Source: an uncultured virus (IMG/VR IMGVR_UViG_3300050021_000838) (taxonomy: Duplodnaviria > Heunggongvirae > Uroviricota > Caudoviricetes). From it: 64,000 nt of DNA. Below the pieces are notes generated by a model that was not told where the DNA came from, searched no databases, and saw only the letters and a list, made by a program, of their open reading frames with translations. A program made the position numbers and the translations under genes. The DNA lies in IMG/VR virus record IMGVR_UViG_3300050021_000838; one strand, given 5' to 3'. Positions 5,701 to 59,215 of this stretch are shown piece by piece (positions within the stretch are counted from its first letter, which is position 1; each line of letters starts with the position of its first letter).

Positions 5701-5891
5701 CCGCGGAAAATCGGGGGAAAATCCATTTAGTGATATTTCTTAAAATCATATTCGAACCGAATCATATTCGCTGTAAGCCGTCTTCGGCGAGCAGCATATT
5801 ATTGGTATTTTATATTCGTCTTTTAACCTTAGTATCTTAGGAAGCGAAAAACCGCCCTTAAACCTTTATAAAATAAACAATTACCGAAAAT

Positions 5892-5960
5892 AGTGAGCGG
5901 CCAAGTTGTCCCATGGGGAGCGGTCAAGTTGTCCCATAGTGAGCGGCCAAGTTGTCCCAT
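5892..5960. repeat. 3 x 23-bp tandem direct repeat (iteron-like)
   Basis: agtgagcggccaagttgtcccat / ggggagcggtcaagttgtcccat / agtgagcggccaagttgtcccat, flanked on both sides by ttataaaataaaca. Confidence 0.9.
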
Positions 5961-5992
5961 TGACCGCGGTTAAGTCCTTATAAAATAAACAG

Positions 5993-16723: not shown

Positions 16724-17752
16724 TTATAAATCTCTTAAAGATTTATTTTGAGCATAATCCTTTTTCATATGTTCAATTAATGTTTCAAATGTTATATCTC
16801 CTCCACCTCCATTTTCAATTAATACTAAGGCTTCAATCCATTGTGCTTTTCCGGTTGAGTATAGTTGCACACTAGATAAATCCCCACCTGATCTAAGCCA
16901 TATGCCTTTGTCTTTCAATCCTTCCGGGTAAAGTTTTGTTACAATTTCGCAAAGCTTTTGTAGCAAAGTCGTAGGGGTATAAGTATTAATGTGTTGTTTA
17001 ATATTTAAGTGATCCAAAAAATTAAACAAAAATGTAACTGCATTCTTAATGGCATATTCTTGAGAACCTTCTTTATCCACTTTTTCTTTTTCATCAATTA
17101 AGTCTGAAATACCCCGTATCAGTAATGATTTAAGTAATGGATAGGGTCTGCAAGCTTCTAAAAAACCTAAACCTTCCATTTCAACAGCCAGAGCATGGCT
17201 ACAATTATTTTTCAAAAATCCAAATAGATTTGAGTCAGATGATGCAACTACTTTTTCTCCAGAAGCAATTGTACCTGAATAAACTGATATTTTATCGTTA
17301 AATTTTCTATTTATAAGCGTTCCAGAAATTTCAACCCAAGCACCAGAGTTTGAATAATCTATTGCTTTCATTTCTAAGTCATACGAGGAAAAAGCAAATT
17401 TCGGTCTTGGGAATAATTGATTTCCTGCCTTTGCCCCTTCGAACCCAAAAACATCTGCACCAATAACTACATCTCCAATTTTAACGTCTTTTAGTCCTCC
17501 TGCTACACCTACAAAGAATATGAAAGAGGGGTTGAAATGTTGAATCATTCTTTCTGTTTCAATTGCCGCATTTACATTTGTTTGGTTAGTACGTCCCACA
17601 ACTATTTCTAAATTAGAACCATTAGAGAAATAATTACCAATTTTATATTGTGTTTTTGTTATTGGATGTTCGAATACTTTAATATTTGAAAGTGATTCTA
17701 AAACAGCTTTCTCTTCTTTAGGAAGAGCAGTTTCAATTATTATTGAATTCAT
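16724..17752 (-). CDS. MTA/SAH-nucleosidase-like nucleoside phosphorylase fused to C-terminal EAD1 (conflict-system effector)
   Basis: TALPKE, FVGVAGG, IASGEKVV, AVEMEG, IRGISD; C-terminal KLYPEG..D..IWLRSGGD..G.AQW...L. Confidence 0.85.
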   Translation of the reverse strand: MNSIIIETALPKEEKAVLESLSNIKVFEHPITKTQYKIGNYFSNGSNLEIVVGRTNQTNVNAAIETERMIQHFNPSFIFFVGVAGGLKDVKIGDVVIGADVFGFEGAKAGNQLFPRPKFAFSSYDLEMKAIDYSNSGAWVEISGTLINRKFNDKISVYSGTIASGEKVVASSDSNLFGFLKNNCSHALAVEMEGLGFLEACRPYPLLKSLLIRGISDLIDEKEKVDKEGSQEYAIKNAVTFLFNFLDHLNIKQHINTYTPTTLLQKLCEIVTKLYPEGLKDKGIWLRSGGDLSSVQLYSTGKAQWIEALVLIENGGGGDITFETLIEHMKKDYAQNKSLRDL

Positions 17753-20292
17753 AGTATTTTAAATAATTCCTTTAGTGTCAATAAGACATTATTCCTGGGA
17801 TATTCTTTTCCCATTTTTTTCAAGAGTTTGTTAACTGTGATACCACTACAACTACCATTTCTTAATTTATTCAGAGCATGTATCCAAATCTCTTTTCCGC
17901 TTCCTTTAACTAAGAGGTCAGATTCTTCACCATCAGATTGCAACCATATTTTTTCGTCAGTCGGACCTTCTGGATATAATTTTATTGTAATTTTCGTAAA
18001 CTCTTCCCACCACTGATCTTCAGTTATAATAACATTTGTTAGGATTCCTGACAATTTAATCTTTGCTTTTGTTATGAAATCGAGTAAGGAATAGCATTCA
18101 ACTAAAGCCAATTTAAAATTTATTATATGTTCACATTTTTTATAAATTACATGCGCTGTCTTGCCATAATCTCTTTCTAAGACAAATTTACCTAGCTGTG
18201 TTGCATCAATAATATCTACTGGTCCATTATAATAATCAACATAGTCACTCACTATATATTCAGGTAAAGTCTTAAATGTTTTAAAGATTGGTAAAACACT
18301 TTTAATATTTGATCTATTATAATAAAGAAAATGGGTTATAGCATCACTTGAAATAATATAATCTAAAAGTATCTGATCTTCCGGAACATCATAAGTTGAA
18401 TCTTTACTTAAGCATCCCAATAAGGCAGAGCTTGTCCTATTAAGAAAGTTATTTTTCAAATGATTGGATAGCTTTGTCCAAAGTTTTTCTCTACCGGAAT
18501 ATTCTAAAACGTTAGCATATTCAGATTCACTAATAATTGTTAAAAGATTTTCACTTACAGGTTTCCCATTAACTAAATTGTCCAATATCTGAAATATCTT
18601 GATTATGGGATCTCGGATACCATCAATTAAATTATTACCTCTCTTGACAGCTTCGTACCATATTTCTTGCCAATTAGAATTTTCAATATCAATAGCATTC
18701 AGCAATGTAATATCTTCATTACATAAATTCCCAGAAATGTTTATTAGCCTTTTATCACCATTATCAACTGAGAAATTGATAATCCCTTTAGGTTTCCCTT
18801 TTTTTAGAATGATTTCAATCGCTGCCGTGTAATTAATATCTTTATCGACATTTAGAAGTTCAGATAAGGCCTTATCATATGAAAATTTTCGTAATAATAT
18901 TGTTGCATATAACTTTAACCATTCCCTTCCTATGGAAAGTTCTTTTAGTGCATCTAATTTTTGAGTAGTTAAGGATGATGGAAAGTTAATTACGAATACA
19001 TCTTCAGCATGTTTAGTATTGCTTATATCTGATTTGATAACATTTAAAATACTAAAATCATACTGAATCCACATCCAAATAATAGAGGCACTCTCATCGT
19101 CAATTTTATCTAAAAATGTTTTAATTTTACGACTTAATAACTTTGTCCACCAATTGGAATTATTTGGTTTATAAATATCTTGTATTAGAATGGTAAAGTC
19201 GCTCTTTTTATTTCTCTCTAATGAGAACAAATGATTATTGCTCCATTCATCAATGGATTCAGTTAAAATATTTTCGCTATTAAAAAAAGAGCCAATCTTA
19301 AAAAGTCTTACTAAAAATATTTCTTTTGCATCTGCATTATATATCAATGATTTTATTCTAATCACCAGTTTTCGCTTTATATGAATACCCTTATTTTCTT
19401 CAGGTGAATATTTTGCGATAATATGAGATAAAGAAATAAGCATTTTAAAATCTGTGCATGTCTCTATAGTTTCAAAGGTATCTATCCCTTTTGCTATTAT
19501 TTCGATATCTTCCGTATTAATAGGTATTGCTTCAATAGAAGTTAAGAAATCATCAATCCTTTTTTTAGATTCAGGTTCATCAGCTAAATATTGCTCTAAA
19601 AATCCAGAAAGTATATGTTCGTCATTCTTTCTTATTAAAAAATATCCACTCCTAAAGAATTTGTTCTCAAGTATTTCTGGGGTTGTTATGAAATTAATAT
19701 TTTTAGTGGAGACATGCGACGAGTTAAAAGTTATTCCGAAATTGATGGTCAGCTTTTCATGAAATGACAATAGTTGCCAAAATCTGCATGCAACATCTTC
19801 ATAATTTTCTTGCCCAACCCAAATTATAGTGTTATTAAAATTATTTATTTCCGTATATCCCCTGATTACTTTATTAAATCTTGATATCAATTTCGCATTA
19901 AGTGTATATTTGTCAATTGGGTTAACATCGATTATAATTGGTTCGATGATAATCTCTTTATTCATTTCTTTAGAAAATACATCCAACAATGGGGAAATAT
20001 TATTTAGAAATTTTAAATCTTGAATAGAAATTATTAAAACATGAGAAAATGCTCTTCCAGCTCTAACTTCAGGAGACGTATCTATATATGTTTTCATTAA
20101 AAGAAAATGATCATTATAAACAAATCCCCTTAAAGCCGGGAACCAGCTAATGCCAATTGGTGTCTGGTCGTGTAAGTCACATTTAAAAGCAATCTCTTTC
20201 GCAATTTTTTCTTCGGCCATTGTGGTTTTGAGCAAATCCCAGGCTTTCTTGCTATTTTCACCACATAATGATTGATGAACTGCAATTTTCAT
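17749..20292 (-). CDS. GAP1-N1 domain protein with C-terminal EAD1
   Basis: N-terminal HQSLCGE...CDLHD...RAGRAFSHVL; C-terminal KLYPEGPTDEKIWLQSDG homologous to the effector tail; operon context. Confidence 0.75.
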   Translation of the reverse strand: MKIAVHQSLCGENSKKAWDLLKTTMAEEKIAKEIAFKCDLHDQTPIGISWFPALRGFVYNDHFLLMKTYIDTSPEVRAGRAFSHVLIISIQDLKFLNNISPLLDVFSKEMNKEIIIEPIIIDVNPIDKYTLNAKLISRFNKVIRGYTEINNFNNTIIWVGQENYEDVACRFWQLLSFHEKLTINFGITFNSSHVSTKNINFITTPEILENKFFRSGYFLIRKNDEHILSGFLEQYLADEPESKKRIDDFLTSIEAIPINTEDIEIIAKGIDTFETIETCTDFKMLISLSHIIAKYSPEENKGIHIKRKLVIRIKSLIYNADAKEIFLVRLFKIGSFFNSENILTESIDEWSNNHLFSLERNKKSDFTILIQDIYKPNNSNWWTKLLSRKIKTFLDKIDDESASIIWMWIQYDFSILNVIKSDISNTKHAEDVFVINFPSSLTTQKLDALKELSIGREWLKLYATILLRKFSYDKALSELLNVDKDINYTAAIEIILKKGKPKGIINFSVDNGDKRLINISGNLCNEDITLLNAIDIENSNWQEIWYEAVKRGNNLIDGIRDPIIKIFQILDNLVNGKPVSENLLTIISESEYANVLEYSGREKLWTKLSNHLKNNFLNRTSSALLGCLSKDSTYDVPEDQILLDYIISSDAITHFLYYNRSNIKSVLPIFKTFKTLPEYIVSDYVDYYNGPVDIIDATQLGKFVLERDYGKTAHVIYKKCEHIINFKLALVECYSLLDFITKAKIKLSGILTNVIITEDQWWEEFTKITIKLYPEGPTDEKIWLQSDGEESDLLVKGSGKEIWIHALNKLRNGSCSGITVNKLLKKMGKEYPRNNVLLTLKELFKIL

Positions 20293-21116
20293 TATAGGGC
20301 ATCAAGAATTAATTCTGTTATATCATCACTTTTTTTTCCATCTTTGTTTATATAATACCCATAATTTTCTGATCCATATAATTGGTATTTTTCTTTATTA
20401 GCTGCATCATTTAAACTAAATCCTTGAGGTGATAAGCCAACTATTTTTAAATAATTCGTATCCCAATTTGTTTTTACAAATTCCAATAGAAGTGGCAGAT
20501 TTTTACTCATAATTTGAATAGGCTTTTCTTGAGTTTTCAATTCATCCCAACACGTAAGAACAATAGTAAGTTTAATTTCCGCATTTTTAAGATGAAAATT
20601 ATATCCCTTAGAATTTAAAAATATTTGTAATAATTCTATTAAAAATGATTGGTCAGAAATTTGATATTCAACATCACTCTTTTCTTTTTTATCACTAATA
20701 ATCTCATCAGTAACGGTTTTTTTACTCAAGTCTGATTCTGAAGTTAAATTTGTTATCCTGATAAATAATAACCAATGATTACTTTCTTTAATTGCTTTTT
20801 CCCATTTATTATCTATTTCCCTTAATAAGATTATTTTATTAATTTGTTCCCCACCATAGTCGGGATATTTTATAATTACTCTCTCTTCACCAACTTGAAT
20901 TGGCAACATTATTTCGGCATTTTTCTCTGGTGGAGTAGTTGTAGTTTCCTCACCTTTTGATAGTGCTTCTCGAGCTTCCTTAATTGCAGTTATATCCTCC
21001 ACGGGTTGATAAAAATATAATTTGCTTTTTTTCTTTTGTAGTCTTGTATAAAACTGAGCTACATAAGTTGATTTGGCAGAATAAGGTCTGCCAATAATTA
21101 ATAATAATTTATTCAT
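20292..21116 (-). CDS. TRAFAC-clade GTPase (double-GTPase system, GTPase 1)
   Basis: GRPYSAKSTY (G1), PDYGGEQ (G3), LTCWDE (G4). Confidence 0.8.
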   Translation of the reverse strand: MNKLLLIIGRPYSAKSTYVAQFYTRLQKKKSKLYFYQPVEDITAIKEAREALSKGEETTTTPPEKNAEIMLPIQVGEERVIIKYPDYGGEQINKIILLREIDNKWEKAIKESNHWLLFIRITNLTSESDLSKKTVTDEIISDKKEKSDVEYQISDQSFLIELLQIFLNSKGYNFHLKNAEIKLTIVLTCWDELKTQEKPIQIMSKNLPLLLEFVKTNWDTNYLKIVGLSPQGFSLNDAANKEKYQLYGSENYGYYINKDGKKSDDITELILDAL

Positions 21117-22072
21117 TTTCTTAAAATATTGTAAAATAGATCATGTGTTGATTTAATTTCATGATCCAACTCTTTAAAAGATGGGATCATCATCTTATCT
21201 AAAAGCCATTCGATCACTATTAGATTATTAATATGTACTTGTTGATCCGGGTCCTGTGATGAAAAATTGCTTATATCTATTTGGGTACTATTTGGAAATA
21301 TATTTCTAATTTCTTCAGTCACTGATTCTTTTATTGCTTTTGGTACTTCATTTTTTTTGTCTGATTTTGACCAGACTGCGATAACGGGTCTTTCTTTTAA
21401 ATTATATGTTAATTGATTCGCAATATCTAAAATTTCGGATTTTGCTTCATTTTTTCGTTTAATAAGATCCACACAATCAATAAAAAAGATAAATGAACTT
21501 GAATTATCATATATCCATCGAGCATTTTCTGCTCGTTCATCTTGACGGTTTAGAGACCAATGAGAAAATACCTCTCCCGATGCATCAGATATTAATAAAT
21601 CATTTAATTTATCTTCTTCGTTTTTTAATGCTAAATGAAAGAATCTTAGATAACCCACCGGAGTTGGATCAGGAAAATATACCTTATCCTTAAGGATCTT
21701 TAATTTAAAATGTAATTCGTCCCACCCTAATATTGTTTTTGAACCTGAAAAACAATAACCGTTTAATTTTTTGTCATTGATAAGGAGTGTATAAAGCATC
21801 GCCAGAAATGTGGTTTTTCCAACATCAGCTTTTCCTACCATTCCAATAACACTTGGGCTATTTCGAGCACTTATCTTTGATAGTTCTTCTTTCTCTAAAG
21901 CTTTACCACTCCAACTAATTTCATTTTTTTTTGTTTTGCTTTGTGGCTTTTCTTTTTTTATCTCCTCTGGTGGATTATTGGCAATCCAATTTTCACATTT
22001 GGTATAATCTTCTATTCCTTCAAGGCAAGACAATGGGGCAGTACATTCAGGTTTTCGACATTTGCTATTCAT
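21113..22072 (-). CDS. TRAFAC-clade GTPase with N-terminal Cys cluster (double-GTPase system, GTPase 2)
   Basis: GKADVGKTT, SDASGE, WSKSD; N-terminal C..PEC....C........C. Confidence 0.8.
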   Translation of the reverse strand: MNSKCRKPECTAPLSCLEGIEDYTKCENWIANNPPEEIKKEKPQSKTKKNEISWSGKALEKEELSKISARNSPSVIGMVGKADVGKTTFLAMLYTLLINDKKLNGYCFSGSKTILGWDELHFKLKILKDKVYFPDPTPVGYLRFFHLALKNEEDKLNDLLISDASGEVFSHWSLNRQDERAENARWIYDNSSSFIFFIDCVDLIKRKNEAKSEILDIANQLTYNLKERPVIAVWSKSDKKNEVPKAIKESVTEEIRNIFPNSTQIDISNFSSQDPDQQVHINNLIVIEWLLDKMMIPSFKELDHEIKSTHDLFYNILRK

Positions 22073-22075
22073 AGA

Positions 22076-23095
22076 TTATTTTGTTTTGATAATTTTTTGA
22101 CTTTGCATATCATGAAACAACCACAAGATAAAATCAGAAGATGTAATTTCGATTGAACTTTTTATACCAACTAATTCTTTAAATTGTTTTATATTATATT
22201 TTTCCCCGATTAGTCCCTTAATGAAATTCAAAAAAGTAATTCTTCCTACTTCAATTGAATACTCACCAAATACTTTACTGAATTCAGTTTTTGAATCATC
22301 TATGGATTTTATAAGGTCAAACAATTTTATTTTTTTATCATCGGGGGCAATGTTTATATAAAATTCTACTAAAAAATAATCTGCATTTGAAGGATAAATA
22401 GGCGGGATAATCTCTGAATAGTCTATTGCTAAAGCTAATAGTAGTTTGGGAGATGTTAAGTCTCTATAACTGGAATTAAATGTTGGGGAATAACAACTTT
22501 CCTTCCACCAAAGTAATTGAGTAAATCTATGAATTATTCCTATATTTTGTTTTGTATTTAATAAATTTTGAGATACCCAATTAAAATTATTTTTAACCTC
22601 ATCTTTATTTAATGGTTCTGAAAGTTCTGTCAGGTTATCTTTCTCATCCTTAAAATTAGACCAGTCATTAATAGCACTATCATTTACTTTCTTTCTCAAT
22701 GACAGGAAAAATTCTGTTAAAATATCTATTTCCCTACCAAGTGTATAATATTTAATTACATTTCGAACTGTTAACCAAATTATGCATGCGATATTCAAAT
22801 CCTTAGAAATCTCCTGAAGAGCTTCAAGAATTACTGCTCTTATATACGTTACAGGAGTATCTTTACTATTTGCATTAAATGTAGGCCAATATTTAATAAT
22901 TATTTCTTGAACTTCTTTAATTATAGGATTATTCACTTCTATGTGCGGATCAAAGGCTATAAGTGCGTATGTGATAATATATTGTCTGTTTTTATTTAAT
23001 TTTTTAACTACATCTTCAGCAGCTTTTTTTAATTTTTCAACATTGGGATCTTCTGTTATACTTATGAAATTTTGGTTTAAAAATTCTTGTAACAT
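22076..23095 (-). CDS. GTPase-associated system all-helical protein (GASH-like)
   Basis: Helical protein with WPTF and QLLWWKESCYSPTF..SYR motifs; first gene of the double-GTPase operon. Confidence 0.7.
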   Translation of the reverse strand: MLQEFLNQNFISITEDPNVEKLKKAAEDVVKKLNKNRQYIITYALIAFDPHIEVNNPIIKEVQEIIIKYWPTFNANSKDTPVTYIRAVILEALQEISKDLNIACIIWLTVRNVIKYYTLGREIDILTEFFLSLRKKVNDSAINDWSNFKDEKDNLTELSEPLNKDEVKNNFNWVSQNLLNTKQNIGIIHRFTQLLWWKESCYSPTFNSSYRDLTSPKLLLALAIDYSEIIPPIYPSNADYFLVEFYINIAPDDKKIKLFDLIKSIDDSKTEFSKVFGEYSIEVGRITFLNFIKGLIGEKYNIKQFKELVGIKSSIEITSSDFILWLFHDMQSQKIIKTK

Positions 23096-26575: not shown

Positions 26576-26959
26576 CTAATTCACGATGTTTTCATTTTCG
26601 GGTAATTTCTTTCTGTAAATCTCCAGTACCTTGATAACCATAGTAATTGCATCTTCGGTGAGATCGAGTCTGTTTGCCATTTGCATGATGAAGGGAACTA
26701 CAGCGGAATCATGTATTTTAATCATGGACGAACCTTCTTCCCCTTGTCTGATCTCATGGAACGGACCGTCATAATAATCAGTGTTCGGCTCAATCTTCAC
26801 CCATGATAAATCTTCCAACATTTCGTTTAACTCCGCCAGAGTCAAGGATTCCATGTAGTCAAAGATCAACTTCTCGGACTGCTCCGGGGACTCGTGTGTA
26901 ATATCATAATCTTTAAGTCCGAGTTTCTCCCATATCACATACGACCAAATCGTTTTCAT
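26576..26959 (-). CDS. hypothetical protein
   Basis: First ORF after motif copy 3. Confidence 0.6.
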   Translation of the reverse strand: MKTIWSYVIWEKLGLKDYDITHESPEQSEKLIFDYMESLTLAELNEMLEDLSWVKIEPNTDYYDGPFHEIRQGEEGSSMIKIHDSAVVPFIMQMANRLDLTEDAITMVIKVLEIYRKKLPENENIVN

Positions 26960-26993
26960 CAAGTTCCTGTTATTTAACTGTTTGAAGATTATC

Positions 26994-27014
26994 TTACAAT
27001 AAACGTGCTAAAGA
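26994..27014 (-). promoter_or_regulatory. sigma54-like promoter motif, copy 3
   Basis: TTTAGCACGTTTATTGTAA. Confidence 0.72.
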
Positions 27015-27034
27015 AAAACCGGATTTCTCCGGTT
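27012..27034 (-). terminator. intrinsic terminator
   Basis: AACCGGA-GAAA-TCCGGTT followed by a T-tract on the minus strand. Confidence 0.7.
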
Positions 27035-27039
27035 GTCAA

Positions 27040-27570
27040 AGGGCGGGCATAGCGGGACCGTAATTCCCCGCTTCTTTAATACAAACCTCCTATGGTTTCC
27101 CAAGGGTTTCAAGTTCCTCGGTTCCCCATTCTCCACCTTCGCTTGAGACGTCATCAGGCTGGAAATAATTCGTACGCATACTCGGATTTTATACTATACG
27201 CCCATGTAAAATCAAAAGGCGGACGTAGCGGACTCCTTACCTTCCACAATTTCATACAAGCCTCCTGTCGGTACCTGTAACCCTTCATTGGTGTTCCGTC
27301 CCGTCTCTCCACCTATCCACACGGTAGGTGCCGATGAGCAGCTGTCTCAAACAGCAACTGACATGCGATGGAAATAATCTTGTATGCGTTCGTAGTTCGA
27401 ACTGTACGTCCATTAAAATGTTATCCTGGCACCCGATTAAGTGATTACGGGGCTTCTCCTATCCAGCCTCATCTCCACCTGCTCCAGATCGGGCTGCTCA
27501 GCTGATGTCTCATCCCTCCTTGGAAGGAAATAACTTAGACAGACACATTACTTGCTATTATGCTACAGGA
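27040..27570 (-). ncRNA. candidate ~530-nt large ornate ncRNA
   Basis: ORF-free, purine-rich on the minus strand, multiple 7-10-bp long-range complementarities, three internal repeated domains, ends at a terminator. Confidence 0.65.
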
Positions 27571-27577
27571 CTTAATC

Positions 27578-27817
27578 TTAGAGAGGCAATAGCCTCTGAA
27601 TTTCCTCAAAACTATATTTCAATGCGACCTTTTCCAAATGCTCTGCAATCAGAGTATCTTCAAGCGAGACAGGCTTGCGCGCCGGCTCCTTACCGTTCAC
27701 CGCCCGCCTTATCATTTCAATTTCTTTCGGATTCGAACTGACCGCGATGTACTCCAATACATCACCAAGTTCTACGTCCACTTCAATCTCTTTACTTATT
27801 GTCACATTCAGTCCCAT
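27578..27817 (-). CDS. hypothetical protein
   Basis: TAATG-coupled ORF. Confidence 0.55.
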   Translation of the reverse strand: MGLNVTISKEIEVDVELGDVLEYIAVSSNPKEIEMIRRAVNGKEPARKPVSLEDTLIAEHLEKVALKYSFEEIQRLLPL

Positions 27818-28590
27818 TAAACTAAATTTCCTACATTATGTCTTATTAGCTTTTTCATTGCCTCCAGATTCTCTGGCTCAGGCATAGTGAATTCTCTTAT
27901 TAAATTCGTATGACCGTAGTCCATGAACTCCTTGAATTCATACGCCCTGACATCCGTGAACATTTTCATTAACGGAAGCATCAGACTGGTAAATTCTTTA
28001 TCTGTCCACGGCGGAGTCCATACTCCTGACTTGCATAAAACGATTGCACTCAGTTCAATATTCTCTGGCAGTGAGCCAAGTCCGCAGGTGGTCTTGTATC
28101 TTTTCGGGTTGAGACTGGCGTAACCAAATTTCGGTTTGCCATCCTGCTTTCTTCTTTCTTCTGACGGATAAATCTGATGGACGTTCTTTACCGATCCCTC
28201 GCCCAATAAATGTCCGAGCCAGTTTTCGCAGGAGATCTCATTAAATCCATTATTGTAAAAAATATCATGGTGCGAATCCATGTTGATCACCAGATCATAT
28301 TTGCTTTTCCTCAGAGATTCGTAGCCGAACCGGTGACTATCCATTATGAACAGTTGAGCATTATCAGCAATCGTAATATTTTTCTCTTCGAGGATCTCCA
28401 AGAACTCCCATGGTTCCGTAGTTACCTTTATCATTTCCTTGAGGTCTTTACCCTGCATCATAGCTCCGGTGGCTCTAACACCCCACATCATGTCACCGAA
28501 GGATATACCCGCATCCTCATGGAAGTGCATATCCCAAGCCGATGACACCGGGACAAAATAATCCCAATCTATGCTGAGGGCAATCTTCAT
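27817..28590 (-). CDS. UPF0489/arginase-like metallo-protein
   Basis: LSIDWDYF, DSH, INMDSHHD, CENWL, CKSGVWTPPWTD. Confidence 0.65.
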   Translation of the reverse strand: MKIALSIDWDYFVPVSSAWDMHFHEDAGISFGDMMWGVRATGAMMQGKDLKEMIKVTTEPWEFLEILEEKNITIADNAQLFIMDSHRFGYESLRKSKYDLVINMDSHHDIFYNNGFNEISCENWLGHLLGEGSVKNVHQIYPSEERRKQDGKPKFGYASLNPKRYKTTCGLGSLPENIELSAIVLCKSGVWTPPWTDKEFTSLMLPLMKMFTDVRAYEFKEFMDYGHTNLIREFTMPEPENLEAMKKLIRHNVGNLV

Positions 28591-31141: not shown

Positions 31142-31615
31142 TCAGAATTCAAGATCCTCTGTTTCCTGAAGATGGGCATCATGATACCCCTTCCCTATCA
31201 GAAACTTTACAAAGTCATCTACGTTATATTCCTCTTCATCCGTCTTCACATACTCATCCCGCAGAATCCGCAATTCCCTCAGTCCGCCTGTGACAACCAG
31301 AACGCCAAGTGCACCCTCATTGTCCTGCAGATTAAAATAATGAGTTTTATCTCTGGGGATCACAATCGGTTTCGTAACTCCAGCCCTTTGAATGGCTACA
31401 TTGGCACTTGCCAGTGCTGGAATCCATTGCTCCAGTGTCATTCTCATTATCGGTTCATCCGGATAGTCCAGATGCATCTGCAAAGTGTGGGCAAGATGGC
31501 AAACGCTATCTCCCCTCATAAAAAATCCGGGCCAGTCCTTACCGAACTGAACAACTCCAGTCTCTACCCGTTCGGTCTCATCAAACGGAATTATTCTTAC
31601 TGGTACTTCTTCCAT
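31142..31615 (-). CDS. hypothetical protein
   Basis: RVETGVVQFG.DWPG.F.RGD motif; coupled to the ligase stop. Confidence 0.6.
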   Translation of the reverse strand: MEEVPVRIIPFDETERVETGVVQFGKDWPGFFMRGDSVCHLAHTLQMHLDYPDEPIMRMTLEQWIPALASANVAIQRAGVTKPIVIPRDKTHYFNLQDNEGALGVLVVTGGLRELRILRDEYVKTDEEEYNVDDFVKFLIGKGYHDAHLQETEDLEF

Positions 31616-32739
31616 TATGCAGCCTCATCGATGTCTGCTTCAAGGCGTATAGCAAATGCTTCTCCGGGCTTACCGACCGCTATCGTCGGAACTCCATCCT
31701 CAGACAGATCGAAATACTTAACCATCAGCATTTTGCCAATGTAGCTCTCCCCATGTTCAAACCAGTATGCTTTCTTCGAATAGCTACCGACAGGCACCAC
31801 CTCGAAAGTTTTGCCATTAGGCAACCCGCAAGTGAAGGTAACACAACCTTTGTTTCTGCCGACTCCATCTGTAAACCCTACGATGGGAAATTCTTTATCC
31901 TTGAAACTTTTTACCTTCAGTACGTCATAGGTCTCTTTGCCAAGGACATACGGAGCCTTGATATTACGAACCATAGCACCTTCATAGCCCTCCAATACGA
32001 ATCGTTTCTCATAAGCGAGGACTTCAGCTTCATTGTTAGCGATGAACGTTTCTTCCACCACGATACTCGGACTATCGATTTTGCTGAATATGTCATTCAA
32101 TAATTCCAGTCTTGCATCCTGTGGCATAGAGAGGTCATCCAGATTCACAAGGTCAAAAGCATTGAAATTCATGGCATCAGACTTTGCTCCACGATATTTC
32201 TTTACCCGCCTATTGCACTCCTGAAGGTTGATGCCATGCAGATATATTTCACCGCATGGAATAATGTTCGCCGGAATCTTCCCCGCCAAGGCTTTATTTA
32301 TATGCTGTACGGTATCATACGATTTATTGCCACGACTCTGCAGTTTGATATCGCTGATATCGCCGACAGCCATCGTATTAAGTCCATTCAGCTTATGCTG
32401 AACTATGCAGGGATATATAATCTTCTTCTTATGGTCATCAAATACATTGGCATGCTGCGGAAGGATCTTCGTAGTCTCCTCTGCGCAATCCGGTGTCAAT
32501 GAATACTTGACATCCAATTTCTTCTGCCACTGACTTTTAATTTCAAGTTCCGCCTGCTGTTCAGGTGTGGTTTCATTGGCTTTACCGATGTTCTTACCGA
32601 CGCAGGCTACAGGTTCTGATTCCCTGAGCTTACCGCCCATCTCACCGAACTCTTTAATAATGTTACATCCTTCCGTGCGGATCGTCCATTGCTGGATCTT
32701 GCCCGTCTTGGCTTTCTGATACAATGTTGCTAATATCAT
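31615..32739 (-). CDS. ATP-dependent DNA ligase (phage type), paralog A
   Basis: Motif I QHKLNG, III CGEIY, IIIa FNAFD, IV EGYEGAMVR, V LKVKSF, C-terminal OB fold. Confidence 0.88.
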   Translation of the reverse strand: MILATLYQKAKTGKIQQWTIRTEGCNIIKEFGEMGGKLRESEPVACVGKNIGKANETTPEQQAELEIKSQWQKKLDVKYSLTPDCAEETTKILPQHANVFDDHKKKIIYPCIVQHKLNGLNTMAVGDISDIKLQSRGNKSYDTVQHINKALAGKIPANIIPCGEIYLHGINLQECNRRVKKYRGAKSDAMNFNAFDLVNLDDLSMPQDARLELLNDIFSKIDSPSIVVEETFIANNEAEVLAYEKRFVLEGYEGAMVRNIKAPYVLGKETYDVLKVKSFKDKEFPIVGFTDGVGRNKGCVTFTCGLPNGKTFEVVPVGSYSKKAYWFEHGESYIGKMLMVKYFDLSEDGVPTIAVGKPGEAFAIRLEADIDEAA

Positions 32740-36703: not shown

Positions 36704-36724
36704 GAACAAGTTCCGTGCTAAGTT
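36704..36724 (-). promoter_or_regulatory. sigma54-like promoter motif, copy 7
   Basis: AACTTAGCACGGAACTTGTTC, abutting the parB stop. Confidence 0.7.
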
Positions 36725-37574
36725 ATTTTTTAGCTTTCAGAACCCGTAACTTTTCAGTTAACTGTCTAATTAAGTCTTTTTTATCAGTATACTTGAAGGT
36801 CAAACTCAGGACCGTAGACTTGATTGCATGCTTATCCCTGATTTCCCTTGCCATCACCATTGCATCTTCTGCGGGGACGAATTCCTGATAAATTATTTTG
36901 TCGAACAAGGCTTTTTGTTCATCCGGGAAATCCTTAATCAGGTGCAAAGCTTTTGCGTGGCCGATAGACATTGGAGTCTTAGCTTCCTTCTTGAAACTTA
37001 CTATCTCTTTTTGCATTTCTTCAGGCAGATTCAGGATCCTAACATAATTCTTTCTTGTCGATTCTGATATTCCAAGCATTGCCTCCACTTCAGACCAGGG
37101 TGCATTTTCTCCCAGCATGCCCTTGTACTCCAAAAGAGCGTATGCTTTATCCACCACATTCAGATCTTCCCGACATAAATTCTCAATCAACTGCTTAGCA
37201 AAGATGTCCTTGCCATCAGAAGGCTTCAGAATCATGCATGGCAGTTCCGCTATGCCAAGATCTCGTGCCGCCCGATATCTTCTCTCCCCCGTAATCAAAA
37301 CAAACGTACCAGCGTCTTCTGAGCGAACTGTGAGTGGCTGCAATATTCCATGCATCTGTATGGAATTCATCAATTCCTGCATTTTAGCGGGATCAAACTC
37401 CTTTCTGGGCTGGTTTTCGTCCGGATGAACGAGTTCTATTGCGATTATTCGGGCATTAGATAACCTTTTTGACTGACTATACCCGCCATCGGACTGGAAT
37501 TTACTGGTCAATTCAATTCCAGGTCTATCGTTCTTTAGGGATTCATTAAGCTGTTTCGTAAAATTTTTCGACAC
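36723..37574 (-). CDS. parB: ParB/RepB/Spo0J partition protein
   Basis: PDENQPRKEFD, HGILQPL, LITGERRYRAA, IENLCREDL, HTH. Confidence 0.92.
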   Translation of the reverse strand: MSKNFTKQLNESLKNDRPGIELTSKFQSDGGYSQSKRLSNARIIAIELVHPDENQPRKEFDPAKMQELMNSIQMHGILQPLTVRSEDAGTFVLITGERRYRAARDLGIAELPCMILKPSDGKDIFAKQLIENLCREDLNVVDKAYALLEYKGMLGENAPWSEVEAMLGISESTRKNYVRILNLPEEMQKEIVSFKKEAKTPMSIGHAKALHLIKDFPDEQKALFDKIIYQEFVPAEDAMVMAREIRDKHAIKSTVLSLTFKYTDKKDLIRQLTEKLRVLKAKK

Positions 37575-38343
37575 GTTCCATCATCTCCTTGAAAAGTGAT
37601 TTAATCGTAAGAACTCCATCTTCCTGACTGATGGACTTGTTGGCTATTAACTTATGCGTGGAATTTGCTTCTGCAAAAAGAGGTATATTCCTAACTATGC
37701 TCTTGAAAACCGTGTCTCCGTATAAATTTCTAATCACCTTTACCATGTCCGCTTCATATCTACGTCGTCCCAATAACTTGTTTATTACGATACCAAGTAA
37801 AACCAAATCCGGGTTACTACGTTTCTTGATAGCATCAACCGTTGCCGTTAACTGATTAGCTCCGCTTGCCGCCCATTCTCCAGCTTCCACCGGAACTACG
37901 AAGAATGAAGCATAGGTTAGAGCCATCCTGGTCGCCCGCAATAAATTCGGAGCGCAATCGAGGATCACATAATCATAATCTCTTTCGACATCCACCAGCG
38001 CCTCCTTCAATCTAAACTGAGCATCATCTGCCATCGCCAGTTTGATATCCACGTCTCCGAATGCCAGATTGCATGGGATAATGTCGATTAACTTCCATTT
38101 CGTCGGCTGGATTATATCTTTCGCTGGTGTATCATTGACAATCAGGTCATTTATGGTAAGCGGTATGGTCTGATATTCCTTATTCAGAAAGAATTTCGAC
38201 ATATTGCCCTGCGGATCTGTATCCACAAGCAGTATCCTACTTTTCTTATCCGAAGCTGCCGCTCCAGCTATCTGAATAGTGAGCGTGGTCTTGCCGACTC
38301 CCCCTTTTTGGTTCGCAAATGCAATCCGTACCGGTTCTTTCAT
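37546..38343 (-). CDS. parA: ParA/Soj partition ATPase
   Basis: NQKGGVGKTT, VDTDPQGN, YDYVILDCAP. Confidence 0.93.
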   Translation of the reverse strand: MKEPVRIAFANQKGGVGKTTLTIQIAGAAASDKKSRILLVDTDPQGNMSKFFLNKEYQTIPLTINDLIVNDTPAKDIIQPTKWKLIDIIPCNLAFGDVDIKLAMADDAQFRLKEALVDVERDYDYVILDCAPNLLRATRMALTYASFFVVPVEAGEWAASGANQLTATVDAIKKRSNPDLVLLGIVINKLLGRRRYEADMVKVIRNLYGDTVFKSIVRNIPLFAEANSTHKLIANKSISQEDGVLTIKSLFKEMMERVEKFYETA

Positions 38344-38345
38344 GC

Positions 38346-39665
38346 CTACTCCTTCTCAGGGGGCACGACGTGCCCCCTCTGTTCAAGAATCTTATTTATG
38401 GTCACCAAAATGGCTCCCCGAATGAAAATCGGGGCATTTTCGTACAATTCCACCGTGAATTCCTTTAAGGGGACACCGTATTTCTTCAATCCGTCCTTAT
38501 TGGCATAATCGAATGCCTCTGGATCAGATTTTTCCAGAAGGACAATCGCCTCATCAAATAATTTCTTTTGTCCATCTTTCGTAAGAGCCAGCCATTGTTT
38601 CCTTAATTGCTGGTCCTTCGCCAGTCTTATTTTGTCCCTCCCCTTACCCAACTCCTCCTTTTCGTGACGTTCATTCTTATTCTTCAGGATCTTCATTTGT
38701 TCTTCCCTGAACTTGACATATCCTTTGGGAATTTCATATCCATTTTCAAGAGCCGATATCAGAAAACCGGTTATGTTTTTCTCCGCCTTTGAATATCCGA
38801 GCTTCAAACTTTCAACCCACTGGGCAATTTCTTCTTCATCGAACCGGGTGAGCAATTCCTTAACTCCATCTTCCGTGACACCTAAATTCTTTAACTCACC
38901 GGCTAGTCCGGAAGCAAATAAATCAGGGGACTCCGGGGCCGGCAATGACGAGCCTGGTCTTCTTGAAATCTTGAATTTCACAAAGTCGGGTTTTCGGTTC
39001 GGTTTGTATTCGACCTCGATGTTAATCTCGGCATCAGGGATCGAGTGAATATCTTCGATGGGCTTATTTATCAATTTCTTTTTCAGATCTCGCAGGTCCT
39101 GGTATTCGTTGACTCCCACTCCCATTAGTTTCTTGAATATCGAAATCGGAATCCATGGAGTCTCTCCATAAGTTCTCTTGACATCATAATAGTCGATACA
39201 GAGTTCATACATCGCAAGTGAGTATTTCGACATGAAGTTATTTTGCATCCGCAAGTTGATCCTTGCATACATTCTTGGATTATATAACTTCTCTCGCAGT
39301 CCCTTGTAATATCCCCAATAAATCTTGCCTTCCTTAAACGTAGCACCAGCCAAGAAAGTAGTCGTACCCCATTCCGCCACACCATCCTTCCCCAGAATAT
39401 TCCATTCGATTTGCGTAGTATTCAAAGCTATGAGTGTGCTTTTCAGATAGTCCCGATTCGAATCTCCATACTCCAACATATCACATAGTTCTATAATGGG
39501 CATGCTATATTCTTCTTTATTCTGGAGTTCATCATAGGCGTGGGCAAGTAGTACGTTCCAGGCTTTTCGTTGTAGTAAACTTACTACATTATTCACCTGA
39601 ATCGACGCAGAATGCTTAATGACCGACTGCGGTCTAGGCGTATTCGTTGTAATTGTCTTGGTCAA
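38346..39665 (-). CDS. Rep_3 family plasmid replication initiator
   Basis: VIKHSASIQ..SLLQRKAWNVLL..AY, IEWNIL, P.MYARINL, SKYSLAMYELC.DY; TTG start. Confidence 0.88.
   Translation of the reverse strand: MTKTITTNTPRPQSVIKHSASIQVNNVVSLLQRKAWNVLLAHAYDELQNKEEYSMPIIELCDMLEYGDSNRDYLKSTLIALNTTQIEWNILGKDGVAEWGTTTFLAGATFKEGKIYWGYYKGLREKLYNPRMYARINLRMQNNFMSKYSLAMYELCIDYYDVKRTYGETPWIPISIFKKLMGVGVNEYQDLRDLKKKLINKPIEDIHSIPDAEINIEVEYKPNRKPDFVKFKISRRPGSSLPAPESPDLFASGLAGELKNLGVTEDGVKELLTRFDEEEIAQWVESLKLGYSKAEKNITGFLISALENGYEIPKGYVKFREEQMKILKNKNERHEKEELGKGRDKIRLAKDQQLRKQWLALTKDGQKKLFDEAIVLLEKSDPEAFDYANKDGLKKYGVPLKEFTVELYENAPIFIRGAILVTINKILEQRGHVVPPEKE
38358..38378. promoter_or_regulatory. candidate parS palindrome, copy 1
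   Basis: AGGGGGCACG-A-CGTGCCCCCT, 15 nt upstream of the parA start. Confidence 0.6.
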
Positions 39666-39715
39666 AACGATTGCTCTTGTGTTACGGGAACAAACTTAAT
39701 AAAATCATTGGGACA

Positions 39716-39745
39716 AAAGCAAATATAAACGTCCACATTTGTCAA
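39716..39745 (-). promoter_or_regulatory. rep promoter overlapped by an iteron
   Basis: TTGACA (39740-39745) followed by the iteron TATAAACGTCCACA (39724-39737). Confidence 0.6.
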
Positions 39746-39790
39746 GTGTCCGCATTATAACTTTCTTGCAGTACAATTTTCAGGAATGTT

Positions 39791-40257
39791 ATGAATACTC
39801 TATACTTTGCTGATTGTTTAGACGTGCTAAAAGATTTGTGCCATTATCACCCAGACCTAAGCTACATAGATCCACCATTTAATTCAAAACGCGATTATAA
39901 TATCCTTTTCGAGTCCATTGATATCAAGGTTTCGACGGATATTTTACTTTCACCAAATCTGACGAGAAAAGAGGGTTGTCACTGGTAGAGATCAAAAGCG
40001 GGCATGTCAATGTCAAGAACGTCCGGGAATTTATTCAGGTTCTAAAGACCAAGAAGGCTGACCACGGTGTTTTCGTCTGCTTCAAGGATAAAGCCTATCC
40101 TAATCGATACGACAAGGTTCAGATACTAACTGTTGAGCATATTCTGGACGGTATAGGAATTAACCTTCCTTTGGAGCAGGGACTGAAGAAAAGCACGTTC
40201 AAAGCCGCTACTAAGTCTTTAACTCCCATTACGAAGGAAGAATCTTTTTTCGATTAG
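39791..40257 (+). pseudogene. internally deleted DNA methyltransferase / Mrr-like nuclease fusion remnant
   Basis: N-terminal fragment NTLYFADCLDVL...YIDPPFNSKRDYNILF plus out-of-frame C-terminal fragment VEIKSGHV.V...GVFVCF...QILTVE.IL...TFKAA; the middle is missing. Confidence 0.75.
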
Positions 40258-40261
40258 TCGG

Positions 40262-40700
40262 TATAAACGTCCACAATCGACTTAATACTGATATAAACGT
40301 CCACATTCATTTTCGAATGATATAAATGACCACATTGTAAACGTCCCAACTTGGTGCCTCATTCATCCCTTCAGGTAAGTCCAGACACCTATTTTCAGTG
40401 TTTTTAGCCACTTATGGGCATGAATTTGAGGTCAGAAACCGTTATAGACGTCCACAATCAGCCCGGAATATAGACGTCCACATTACATTGATATAAACGA
40501 CCACAGTTCTGATATGAACATCCACAAAACCCATTATAAACAACCCCTTTTCATAATACAAACATCCACAGAAATCGTTATAAACGACCACAATAGTAAC
40601 CATAACGACAAGCCTTATAATGAGTTTCTCGATTACAAAACAATTAAAACTATTAAAATTATAAAACAACGTAGTAGTTTCTTATTCATTATTTATTAAT
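40262..40700. repeat. iteron array and AT-rich tract: probable replication origin
   Basis: TATA(A/G)ACG(T/A)CCACA-like units at 40262, 40292, 40321, 40443, 40469, 40492, 40513, 40535, 40557 and 40579 (the last six at 21-23-bp period), then AT-rich 40630-40700. Confidence 0.88.
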
Positions 40701-54124: not shown

Positions 54125-54144
54125 TTGAACTCCATTTATTTTTG

Positions 54145-54229
54145 CACGTAGAGCAGGATTCGAACCTGCGAAGGCTTTCGCCGACAGTTTTGGAGACTGT
54201 TCCCTTAGACCAGACTTGGGTATCTACGT
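54145..54229 (-). tRNA. tRNA with CCA anticodon (Trp) and a long variable arm
   Basis: Acceptor ACGTAGA/TCTACGT plus G73; anticodon arm ACAGT-CTCCAAA-ACTGT; variable arm GGC-GAAA-GCC; T arm GCAGG-TTCGAAT-CCTGC. Confidence 0.88.
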
Positions 54230-54618: not shown

Positions 54619-55752
54619 TTATGCTACCTCATCCATATCTTCGTACAGTCTGATAGCAAAACCCTCGCCAGGTACGCCAACTGCAATACTTGGTATTCCC
54701 TTTTCAGAGTAATCATAAAACTTAACCATTAGCATTCTTCCAATGTGCTCATCTGCGTGTCTGAACCAGTAAGCCTTATCTTCATAAGTTCCTTTCGGTT
54801 CGACATCGAACGATGCACTTCCATCCGGCAATTCGCATAACCATGTTACACATCCAAGGTTCTTCCCTTTGCCTGATTTGTAGCCGACTATCTTGAATTC
54901 CGCGTCCTGGAATGATTTCACTTTTAGCACATCATAGGTTTCCTTACCCATGACATATACCGCTTTCATGTTTCTAACCATCGCACCCTCAAAGCCTTCC
55001 TCTACGAATTGTTTTTCGTAAGCCAGAACTTCAGCTTCATTGTTGGCAATAAAGGTTTCTACTTCTTTGATGCAAGGCGCTGTTACTTCTCTCAGGAGTT
55101 CATGTATCAGGGCTAGTCTTTCATCCTGTGGCATATTCGGTTGGTCAACTACAACGCAATCGAATACATGGAATTCCATAGCATCTGATCTGGGACCTCT
55201 GTACTTTTTAACTCTTCGGTTGGTTTCTTCCAGCGTGAGTCCATGTAGGTAAATCTCTCCAAGTGGAAGGATATTCTTCGGTACTTTGCCAGCAAAAGCA
55301 TTATTTATATGCTGGACTGATGAATATTCTTTGTTGCCTCTGCTCTGCAGTTTAATCCCCGGCATCTCTCTTACCATTGTGTTCAGCCCATTGTACTTTC
55401 TCTGGACAAAACATGGGTAAATTACTTTACTTTTATGTTTGCCAAATTCATTTGCATGCTGAGGCAGGACTTTCGTGGTACCAAGAGCTTCTTCCCGTGT
55501 CTCTGAATATTTCTTATCCAGTTTCTTCTGCCATTGAGCCTGAGCCTCTTTCACTGCCTGTTCTTCCGGAGTAGTTTCATTAGCTTTGCCAATGTTCTTT
55601 CCGATTACCGCTACCGGAGCTGACGACTGTAATTTGCCGCCGACTTTCCCATATTCTTTAATAATCGAATTGCCTTCCACTCGGATCGTCCACTGCTGAA
55701 GTCCACCTTCCTTGTTTTTCTCATACAAGGTTGGTAAAATGACTGTTTGCAT
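54619..55752 (-). CDS. ATP-dependent DNA ligase (phage type), paralog B
   Basis: QRKYNG, LGEIY, FHVFD, EGFEGAMVR, LKVKSF. Confidence 0.88.
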   Translation of the reverse strand: MQTVILPTLYEKNKEGGLQQWTIRVEGNSIIKEYGKVGGKLQSSAPVAVIGKNIGKANETTPEEQAVKEAQAQWQKKLDKKYSETREEALGTTKVLPQHANEFGKHKSKVIYPCFVQRKYNGLNTMVREMPGIKLQSRGNKEYSSVQHINNAFAGKVPKNILPLGEIYLHGLTLEETNRRVKKYRGPRSDAMEFHVFDCVVVDQPNMPQDERLALIHELLREVTAPCIKEVETFIANNEAEVLAYEKQFVEEGFEGAMVRNMKAVYVMGKETYDVLKVKSFQDAEFKIVGYKSGKGKNLGCVTWLCELPDGSASFDVEPKGTYEDKAYWFRHADEHIGRMLMVKFYDYSEKGIPSIAVGVPGEGFAIRLYEDMDEVA

Positions 55753-56084: not shown

Positions 56085-56156
56085 CTGCGTGATTAGGAGT
56101 CGAACCCAAGTTTCCGACTTGAGAAAGCCAGCGTCCTAACTTTAGACGACCACGCA
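56085..56156 (-). tRNA. atypical or degenerate tRNA-Glu(CTC)-like gene
   Basis: Acceptor TGCGTGG/TCACGCA, Glu-type D arm GTCT..AGGAC, 8-nt loop TTTCTCAA, T arm TTGGG-TTCGACT-CCTAA; D loop lacks GG. Confidence 0.65.
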
Positions 56157-59212: not shown

Positions 59213-59215
59213 TAT

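Follow-up and report, generated by a model that had tools for sequence, protein, structure and literature searches.

The CsrB/CsrC and RsmY/RsmZ RNAs are protein sponges that carry many A(N)GGA motifs in hairpin loops and bind the CsrA family. Hairpins that sequester a Shine–Dalgarno (SD) sequence form a general class that includes translational operators and RNA thermometers. ROOL, GOLLD, OLE, HEARO and raiA are Rfam families of RNA. ROOL and GOLLD are described as having many covariation-supported stems and pseudoknots and as often lying near tRNA islands in phages or prophages (PMC12286853). The ToxI repeats found in type III toxin–antitoxin systems are 36-nt, near-identical, tandem repeats upstream of a terminator (PMC3401426).

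Here we describe a gap between genes in a 64-kb stretch of DNA, analysed whole and referred to below as the window. The gap resembles each of these systems in part. As with ROOL and GOLLD, it is several hundred nucleotides long, non-coding, located in a phage-like element and provided with possible loop–loop complements; unlike them, it has no Rfam match at E ≤ 10, an ordinary fold score and a nearest tRNA gene 27 kb off, and its sequence consists of units in tandem and not of a single architecture. With the CsrB/Rsm sponges it shares its non-coding state, an intrinsic terminator and repeated modules rich in GGA or SD-like boxes, whereas it lacks an Rfam match, is not enriched in A(N)GGA, has many of its GGA triplets in stems and is accompanied by no CsrA-family gene in the window. 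The AGGAGG and GGAGA boxes of the gap can pair with nearby pyrimidines (UUUCC, GCCYUU), as in SD-sequestering hairpins, but no conserved ORF follows the boxes and the hairpins are no stabler than shuffled sequence. Finally, the order of repeat array, terminator hairpin and ORF is that of a type III toxin–antitoxin locus, whereas the repeats are long (134–209 nt) and diverged, with only units 2 and 3 (U2 and U3) significantly alike, and the downstream protein, unlike those of ToxIN, CptIN and TenpIN, shows no ToxN-, CptN- or TenpN-like family.

The minus strand carries every substantial ORF of the window, and the gap ranks second by size among the non-coding gaps. The original prediction had described a stretch with no credible ORF that ends at an intrinsic terminator, and both statements hold: the ∼570 nt between the genes at 27578–27817 and 26576–26959 contain no gene-strand ORF of more than 52 aa, and a minus-strand hairpin at 27034–27017, with seven pairs and a 4-nt loop, is followed by TTTCTTT. 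The features are collected in Table 1. The 79-aa upstream protein has no match in Pfam, PHROGs, PADLOC or NCBIfam, and its AlphaFold model has a pLDDT of 51.4. For the 127-aa downstream protein (searched as 26576–26962) there is no match in Pfam, PADLOC or NCBIfam and no usable match in the protein atlas; just two relatives, both near-identical, were found among 5.8 billion clusters, and the AlphaFold model (pLDDT 51.8) is mostly helical at this low confidence. At the 5′ edge of the gap a sigma-70 scan detected no promoter; it gave one weak match inside unit 2 (27215–27186), among five matches in total compared with a shuffle mean of 5.9.

Table 1. Features of the gap, its flanking genes and the replication iterons (window coordinates)
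Feature	Position	Strand	Basis
Upstream gene, 79 aa, no known family; final gene ahead of the gap	27578..27817	-	ORF list
Short spacer from the stop codon of the upstream gene to unit 1	27534..27577	-	Sequence
Unit 1, 156 nt: box A, box B and unit-2-like tail, without the three-helix module	27378..27533	-	Alignments
Unit 2, 209 nt: box A, insert, box B, hairpin, module and tail	27169..27377	-	U2–U3 homology
Unit 3, 134 nt: box A, short insert, box B, hairpin and module	27035..27168	-	U2–U3 homology
Box A (UUAUUUCC), copies 1, 2 and 3	27526..27533, 27370..27377, 27161..27168	-	Motif search
Box B (AGGUGGAGA), copies 1, 2 and 3	27472..27480, 27306..27314, 27130..27138	-	Motif search
Module copy of unit 2: AGGAGG, 5 nt, AUG; three-helix hairpin closed by CCGCCUUUU	27212..27268	-	
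Module copy of unit 3: AGGAGG, then AUU in place of AUG	27036..27093	-	
Unit 3 hairpin between box B and module	27090..27130	-	Fold score
Intrinsic terminator AACCGGA-GAAA-UCCGGUU and U-run	27007..27034	-	Pattern; pair probabilities 0.73–1.0
Downstream gene, 127 aa from ATG at 26959, acidic, no known family	26576..26959	-	ORF, family searches
Replication iterons TATAAACGTCCACA, 6–7 copies	39711..40596		Adjoining Rep gene

Two short motifs had been noted to recur three times each and to be able to pair so as to close three related domains. All of the copies were found. The sequence AGGTGGAGA occurs three times in the window, in every case within the gap (27130, 27306 and 27472), where 0.5 copies are expected by chance and 2 of 100 shuffles reach three. 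The sequence TTATTTCC occurs seven times, a count that is not above chance (expected 6.0); all three of the minus-strand copies lie in the gap (27161, 27370 and 27526). The relatedness of the three domains was significant for one pair only. Units 2 and 3 align with a local z of 8.1 and a semi-global z of 7.0, and none of 300 shuffles was as good. The local alignment of units 1 and 2 is marginal (z 3.3, 3 of 300 shuffles as good) and that of units 1 and 3 is not significant (z 0.3, 148 of 300).

What the units have in common is found chiefly in four boxes, namely A (UUAUUUCC), B (AGGUGGAGA), C (AGGAGGYUUGUAU) and D (CCGCUAYGYCCGCCYUUUGA). The intervening stretches align between units no better than random sequence does. 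By our own count on the alignments, the four boxes are ∼91% identical between units 2 and 3. Exact copies of boxes A and B occur in all three units, even though units 1 and 3 cannot otherwise be aligned. The 20-nt box D is present twice in the window, with no further site at up to three mismatches (expected 0.05). That the boxes are near-identical while the remainder has diverged suggests selection on the boxes, either now or in the recent past.

The account that we prefer, to which we give roughly even chances, is that the gap is a lineage-specific untranslated operon tail or spacer that arose from an old tandem duplication and carries masked SD-like boxes. A unit of ∼170–210 nt would have been tandemly duplicated long ago, leaving two clear copies and a partial third. 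The tail would be transcribed from the gene strand together with its neighbours and would end at the strong intrinsic terminator, which some transcripts seemingly read through. Each full unit would present two purine boxes that resemble very strong ribosome-binding sites, namely AGGUGGAGA and AGGAGG–5 nt–AUG/AUU. As these purine boxes can pair locally with pyrimidine partners, the RNA would be a string of ordinary local hairpins rather than an integrated ornate fold. Selection would have kept the boxes while the rest drifted, and the boxes would most likely be active at the RNA level. They may have a role in cis, in 3′-end formation, stability or read-through into the next block; alternatively, a factor that recognizes GGA or an SD-like sequence may dock at these repeated sites.

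Several observations count against an operon tail of this kind. There is no thermodynamic signal (z −1.29 for the region, −0.39 and −0.85 for the modules). The full-length ensemble predicts neither the unit 2 module nor the box A–box B helix in units 1 and 2. The divergence of the gap equals that of four-fold degenerate sites, and no partner protein such as CsrA, Hfq or ProQ is encoded in the window.

The substitution data come from related metagenome contigs. Of 10 metagenome matches, six were chance and four were true copies; these four contigs (L118, L122, L124 and L125) carry the gap at 96–98% identity, L125 containing it in part only. The gap has diverged by 2.6–2.9%, as compared with 2.2–3.6% at the four-fold degenerate sites of the flanking genes and a value several times lower at their codon positions 1 and 2. 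Over the 5.4 kb compared, divergence peaks in unit 2, with 11 substitutions in 209 nt (5.3%), and this unit has a 1-nt insertion at 27212 in L122, L124 and L125. Unit 3 has a single substitution in 134 nt in each of the same three contigs, and units 1 and 3 differ by 0–0.7% among the related contigs. Within 43 nt of the short spacer ahead of unit 1 there are two substitutions, together with a 1-nt deletion, in three related contigs, and the central U of box B copy 1 is replaced by C in two of the three that cover the site. In L122, the GAAA loop of the terminator is GCAA. Divergence is patchy along the contigs, ranging from 0% to 5.3% per segment with two other intergenic stretches at 0%, and because of this patchiness no conclusion on constraint is drawn from the rates.

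The main competing explanation is that the gap is a functionless relic of a tandem duplication, perhaps of a small gene with its ribosome-binding site, that now serves as a spacer before the terminator. We regard this as unlikely, though it carries real weight. A relic fits the near-neutral substitution rate, the neutral pattern in every reading frame (see below), the position of unit 2 as the most diverged segment and the absence of a fold signal. It also fits the opening of the unit 2 module, which has the textbook initiation site AGGAGG-N5-AUG-AAA, with AUU replacing AUG in unit 3. The differences in box D between units and variants fall mostly at every third base (CCU/CCG/CCC, GAU/GAC, CGU/CGC), and could be a trace of past coding. 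Uniform neutral decay, however, does not predict ∼91% box identity between units 2 and 3 beside an unalignable remainder. The exact boxes A and B of all three units, where units 1 and 3 are not alignable elsewhere, also count against a relic.

The restriction of the element to one lineage would likewise suit a relic. No diverged relatives of the gap were found in IMG/VR, in the GTDB genomes or among phage or plasmid records. Searches of 50,697 phage records with the gap (blastn) and with 20 kb (megablast) gave no match, nor did a blastn search of PLSDB plasmids with 3 kb. When IMG/VR was scanned for box patterns, box A followed by box B gave at least 116 single, chance-like matches, none of those listed being gap-like by blastn; the three-box pattern gave one match, in a Gly/Ser-rich coding region unrelated to the gap; and box D, or box C followed by box D, gave zero matches. 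In the GTDB genomes, the box D scan returned 10 loci, each of which matched the 20-nt pattern alone. Scans of IMG/VR guided by the 257-aa neighbouring protein and by the ligase found no relatives; the relatives of the 257-aa protein are at most 34% identical, and in the protein atlas it has merely viral hypothetical or ‘arginase’-labelled look-alikes.

The SD-like character of the boxes stands out as unusual. Of the 14 gene-strand copies of AGGAGG in the window, three fall within the 576 nt of the gap, whereas in the 20 nt upstream of 102 putative gene starts AGGAGG is found at none and GGAGG at two. The gap contains 10 copies of GGAG, as compared with 2.8 ± 2.1 per equal-sized window, and 22 of GGA per 576 nt, as compared with 12.5 ± 4.4, ranking it among the top 3.6% of such windows. 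There is no enrichment of A(N)GGA (5 versus 4.5). Many of the GGA triplets are in predicted stems, not hairpin loops, and loop placement is inconsistent. Each purine box has a local pyrimidine partner, UUUCC (within UUAUUUCC) for GGAGA and GCC-YUU for AGGAGG.

A bolder version of the operon-tail account, which we consider improbable, would make the tail a new modular regulatory RNA, confined to one lineage, of a peat extrachromosomal element of at least 179 kb. Through its six masked ‘super’ SD boxes, stronger than the site of any gene in the window, it would serve as a decoy that can be switched, with the 30S subunit or a CsrA-type translational regulator as the target, and would tune translation of the host or the element, or else terminator read-through into the gene block that follows. 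The window encodes no CsrA, Hfq, ProQ, reverse transcriptase or ToxN-like protein. If the boxes did bind ribosomes or a translational regulator, the gap would represent a mobile-element RNA decoy of a new sequence class from an uncultured lineage.

The remainder of the window gives an indication of the type of element involved. It encodes a Rep3-type initiator, ParA and ParB; CobT- and CobS-like proteins; two ATP-dependent DNA ligases; a dNMP kinase, MazG and DUF5131; and a GTPase-associated defence island and a helicase–methylase pair. The exact protein cluster of the 257-aa neighbour is also present on a 179,448-nt contig. Given this gene content, the iterons beside the Rep gene and this contig, the element is a large phage- or plasmid-like replicon. 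The DNA runs that contain the stretch are labelled as peat, soil or permafrost metagenomes.

In such a replicon the boxes could be spaced double-stranded DNA binding sites for a protein of the element, used in packaging, partition, silencing or recombination, with the RNA uninvolved. The conserved boxes match exactly in sequence instead of covarying, and box D holds a direct CCGC…CCGC repeat with a 9-nt separation, both of which would suit DNA sites. We nevertheless consider this very doubtful, as the boxes lack symmetry and are all found on the transcribed strand ahead of the terminator, the iterons by the Rep gene are elsewhere and unrelated in sequence to the boxes, and the ParA and ParB genes are 10 kb from the gap. 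To our knowledge, a box spacing of 156–209 nt is also unlike that of iteron or centromere arrays. The possibility that the gap itself is the iteron array of a replication origin, in which Rep binds direct repeats set close together beside its gene, was considered and rejected on the position and unrelated sequence of the iterons.

The original prediction was of a large ornate RNA, ∼530 nt in length, representing a new class like ROOL and GOLLD, in which three domains are joined by crossing long-range pairs, kissing loops or pseudoknots. Its length, phage-like context and non-coding state fit with this. The six complements on which the prediction relied (27503–12/27144–53, 27493–500/27335–42, 27462–69/27156–63, 27405–11/27221–27, 27379–86/27253–60 and 27382–88/27175–81) all exist, five of them perfect and one with a mismatch. 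Perfect complementary 8-mers in the gap are at chance level, with five observed and 2.0 ± 1.8 in shuffled sequence (27 of 300 shuffles reach five). There are no complementary 9-mers or 10-mers. Complementary 7-mers are mildly enriched, at 18 versus 8.4 ± 3.4, a value reached by 3 of 300 shuffles. In addition, the box A–box B insert of every unit contains a 6-nt palindrome (CAGCUG, CAGCUG and GACGUC), for which we estimate a chance probability of ∼0.06. Among the related contigs there are zero substitutions within the six long-range pairs, so that natural variation neither backs nor contradicts them.

Folding of the whole region gave an MFE z-score of −1.29 for the minus strand, with 9 of 100 shuffles folding as well, and of −0.72 for the plus strand. 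When nine sub-elements were folded alone, the z-scores ranged from −2.33 to +0.59 and a single one was below −2: the unit 3 hairpin (−13.1 kcal/mol, z −2.33, 4 of 200 shuffles as good), which is the sole notable fold score. The three helices that had been proposed to close the domains were borne out to a limited extent. By reading, UUUCC:GGAGA pairing is possible in all three units, with three extra pairs per unit that are different in each, but a high probability was found in unit 3 only: in the full-length ensemble the core pairs of box A and box B have probabilities of 0.75–0.96 in unit 3, 0.05–0.06 in unit 2 and 0.00 in unit 1. The helix is present in the isolated folds of units 2 and 3.

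The module shared by units 2 and 3 is a 57–58-nt hairpin in which boxes C and D make the outer and middle stems and a third stem is innermost. Folded alone, it has an energy of −14.6 kcal/mol in unit 2 (z −0.85) and −15.9 kcal/mol in unit 3 (z −0.39). In the full-length ensemble the fold is not predicted for unit 2, and for unit 3 the inner stem has a probability of 0.99–1.0 and the outer stems 0.0 in the register used. A covariance model of the module (R1) scored 80.7 bits on unit 2 and 75.2 bits on unit 3, both of which are its training copies; across the 64 kb it found no third module, the next best hit having 11.3 bits and an E-value of 0.49, and at E ≤ 10 it found none in unit 1. Paired cells make up 97.3% of the module; one pair changes in a compensatory way (A-U in unit 2, G-C in unit 3) and four changes are one-sided. 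These covariation measures, for a structure derived from the same sequences, were equalled in 49 of 500 shuffles. A natural U-to-G change breaks two module cells. In the four related copies, folding energy is maintained under natural substitutions no better than under random ones of matching kinds, the fractions of random sets that fold at least as well being 0.70, 0.60, 0.21, 0.77 and 0.83.

The original prediction had failed to match the RNA to ROOL or GOLLD by eye, and cmscan agreed, with no Rfam 15 family matching the gap. At the gathering score, the only matches in the whole window were two tRNAs, at 54144–54229 and 56085–56156, the closest tRNA genes to the gap at ∼27 kb off. At E ≤ 10 over 26900–27700 there were only meaningless fragments of snoR442 (E 1.5) and mir-210 (E 6.8). 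One large ornate RNA held together by crossing pairs was thus not upheld: the fold z-score is ordinary, the 8-mer complements are at chance, and the module is common to two units only and absent from the third ‘domain’. The substitution rate, about that of synonymous sites, the distance to the tRNA genes and a depth in RNA contigs (a poor means of ranking) not above that of the neighbouring genes also count against it. A single ornate RNA, possible but without positive support beyond the eye-catching complements, is in our estimation very improbable. The main value of these results is negative, in that the ‘ornate’ look is explicable by tandem duplication and chance complementarity, and the gap should not be counted as a large structured RNA without diverged homologues or probing data.

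The gap might instead encode small proteins, as a chain of short ORFs of 12–52 aa overlapping via ATGA and TGATG. Three ORFs of 42–52 aa do tile the gene strand, the stop/start overlaps can be read, and unit 2 has its AGGAGG-N5-AUG. However, each of the three gene-strand frames has 3–5 synonymous and 9–11 non-synonymous differences, as compared with synonymous to non-synonymous counts of 17:8 and 21:6 in the flanking genes (Fisher P = 0.0008–0.04 versus the gap frames); in the last 24 codons of the 79-aa gene there are four synonymous and zero non-synonymous differences in L122 and L124. Since the substitutions look neutral in all three frames, unlike those in the flanking genes, the gap is non-coding. 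The five ORFs of at least 40 aa on either strand have no Pfam or PHROGs match (best E 0.051), and in L122, L124 and L125 one ORF (A) gains a premature stop, and another (B) no longer has its ATG overlap and is put out of frame by the +1 insertion. A small-protein reading is thus largely refuted, and we give it scant credence. The same neutral ratio in all three frames led us to reject an apparent codon-like pattern seen in box D and several frames.

Least credible of all is a type III toxin–antitoxin-like locus, with the array as RNA antitoxin and the 127-aa ORF as toxin, since although repeats, terminator and ORF follow one another as in the defining layout (PMC3401426), Tandem Repeats Finder reported no array over 27005–27580, the units are 134–209 nt and far from identical, and the downstream protein has no Pfam or PADLOC match and is acidic and mostly helical (in a low-confidence model), unlike an endoribonuclease toxin.

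Contigs from three of four metatranscriptome runs cover parts of the gap, at a word depth of 2.9–8, and the neighbouring genes have a word depth of 2.6–16.6 in such contigs. These contigs carry no information on strand, transcript ends or level, may include DNA carry-over and rank evidence poorly. The depth gives no sign of an abundant stable RNA, and the coverage is consistent with co-transcription with the neighbours at an ordinary level. Two RNA contigs, from different studies, cross the terminator into the next gene. No single RNA contig spans the whole gap, and among the pieces listed 27146–27259 is uncovered, which is not evidence of absence.

RNA contigs from two different studies stop at 27143 and 27145. 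This may be coincidence, and is at most a weak hint of an RNA end. One further RNA contig is more diverged, with nine differences, and the eight that are listed all fall outside the gap; this could reflect either conservation of unit 3 or a recombination boundary.

Unit 2 of the non-coding gap (27169–27377, the middle one of its three tandem units) is divided by 11 substitutions between the window and the haplotype of L122, L124 and L125, three of the four metagenome contigs that carry the gap at 96–98% identity (L125 in part). Six of the 11 fall inside just 16 nt, at 27281–27296, the tip of a hairpin in this unit. A small hairpin is possible at the tip in both versions, in a different register (−7.7 versus −6.1 kcal/mol); the folding of the variants at 27281–27296 was no better kept than under random changes. 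The substitution cluster may be a recombination patch.

The hairpin of unit 3 contains the 10-mer AGGAACUUGA at 27109–27118, and a second exact copy lies at 26959–26968, where the downstream gene has its start and its ribosome-binding site. The sharing may be due to chance, or it may be a vestige of array building. The protein of that gene (P0001, 26576–26962) has one metagenome variant with an internal tandem duplication of 11 residues, giving 138 rather than 127 aa. On the other side of the gap, the 257-aa neighbour (27817–28590) has distant relatives at 23–34% identity, mostly viral or clostridial, which some sources label arginase or UPF0489; its exact cluster was found on a 179-kb contig.

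Features elsewhere in the window
Feature	Position	Detail
Tandem repeat, 23 nt	5890–5975	3.1–3.7 copies, 80–87% matches; intergenic gap
PNP_UDP_1 phosphorylase-like protein, GAP1-N1/EAD1 protein, DO-GTPase1, DO-GTPase2, GASH	16724–23095	
ATP-dependent DNA ligase genes, two paralogues	31615–32739; 54619–55752	PHROG 114
ParA and ParB genes	36723–38343	after Rep3 gene
Rep3 initiator gene	38346–39665	
Iteron TATAAACG(T/A)CCACA	39711–40596	6–7 copies; directly upstream of Rep3 gene
tRNA hits	54144–54229; 56085–56156	Rfam
ResIII/DEAD helicase	56297–62002	971 aa
N6_N4 DNA methylase	56297–62002	928 aa

The block that encodes the GASH and DO-GTPase proteins is a low-GC island (29–31%, compared with ∼43% elsewhere) and is a GTPase-associated conflict system on board the element. 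The helicase and the methylase, which look like a type III restriction-modification pair, lie in the second low-GC block of the window. The iteron cluster is likely the replication origin.

One of the two tRNA loci is a tRNA-Trp on which Rfam and ARAGORN agree, and the other is an Rfam match of 40.3 bits without an ARAGORN call. The ligase genes at 31615–32739 and 54619–55752 matched their PHROG with E-values of 1e-59 and 1e-64, respectively.
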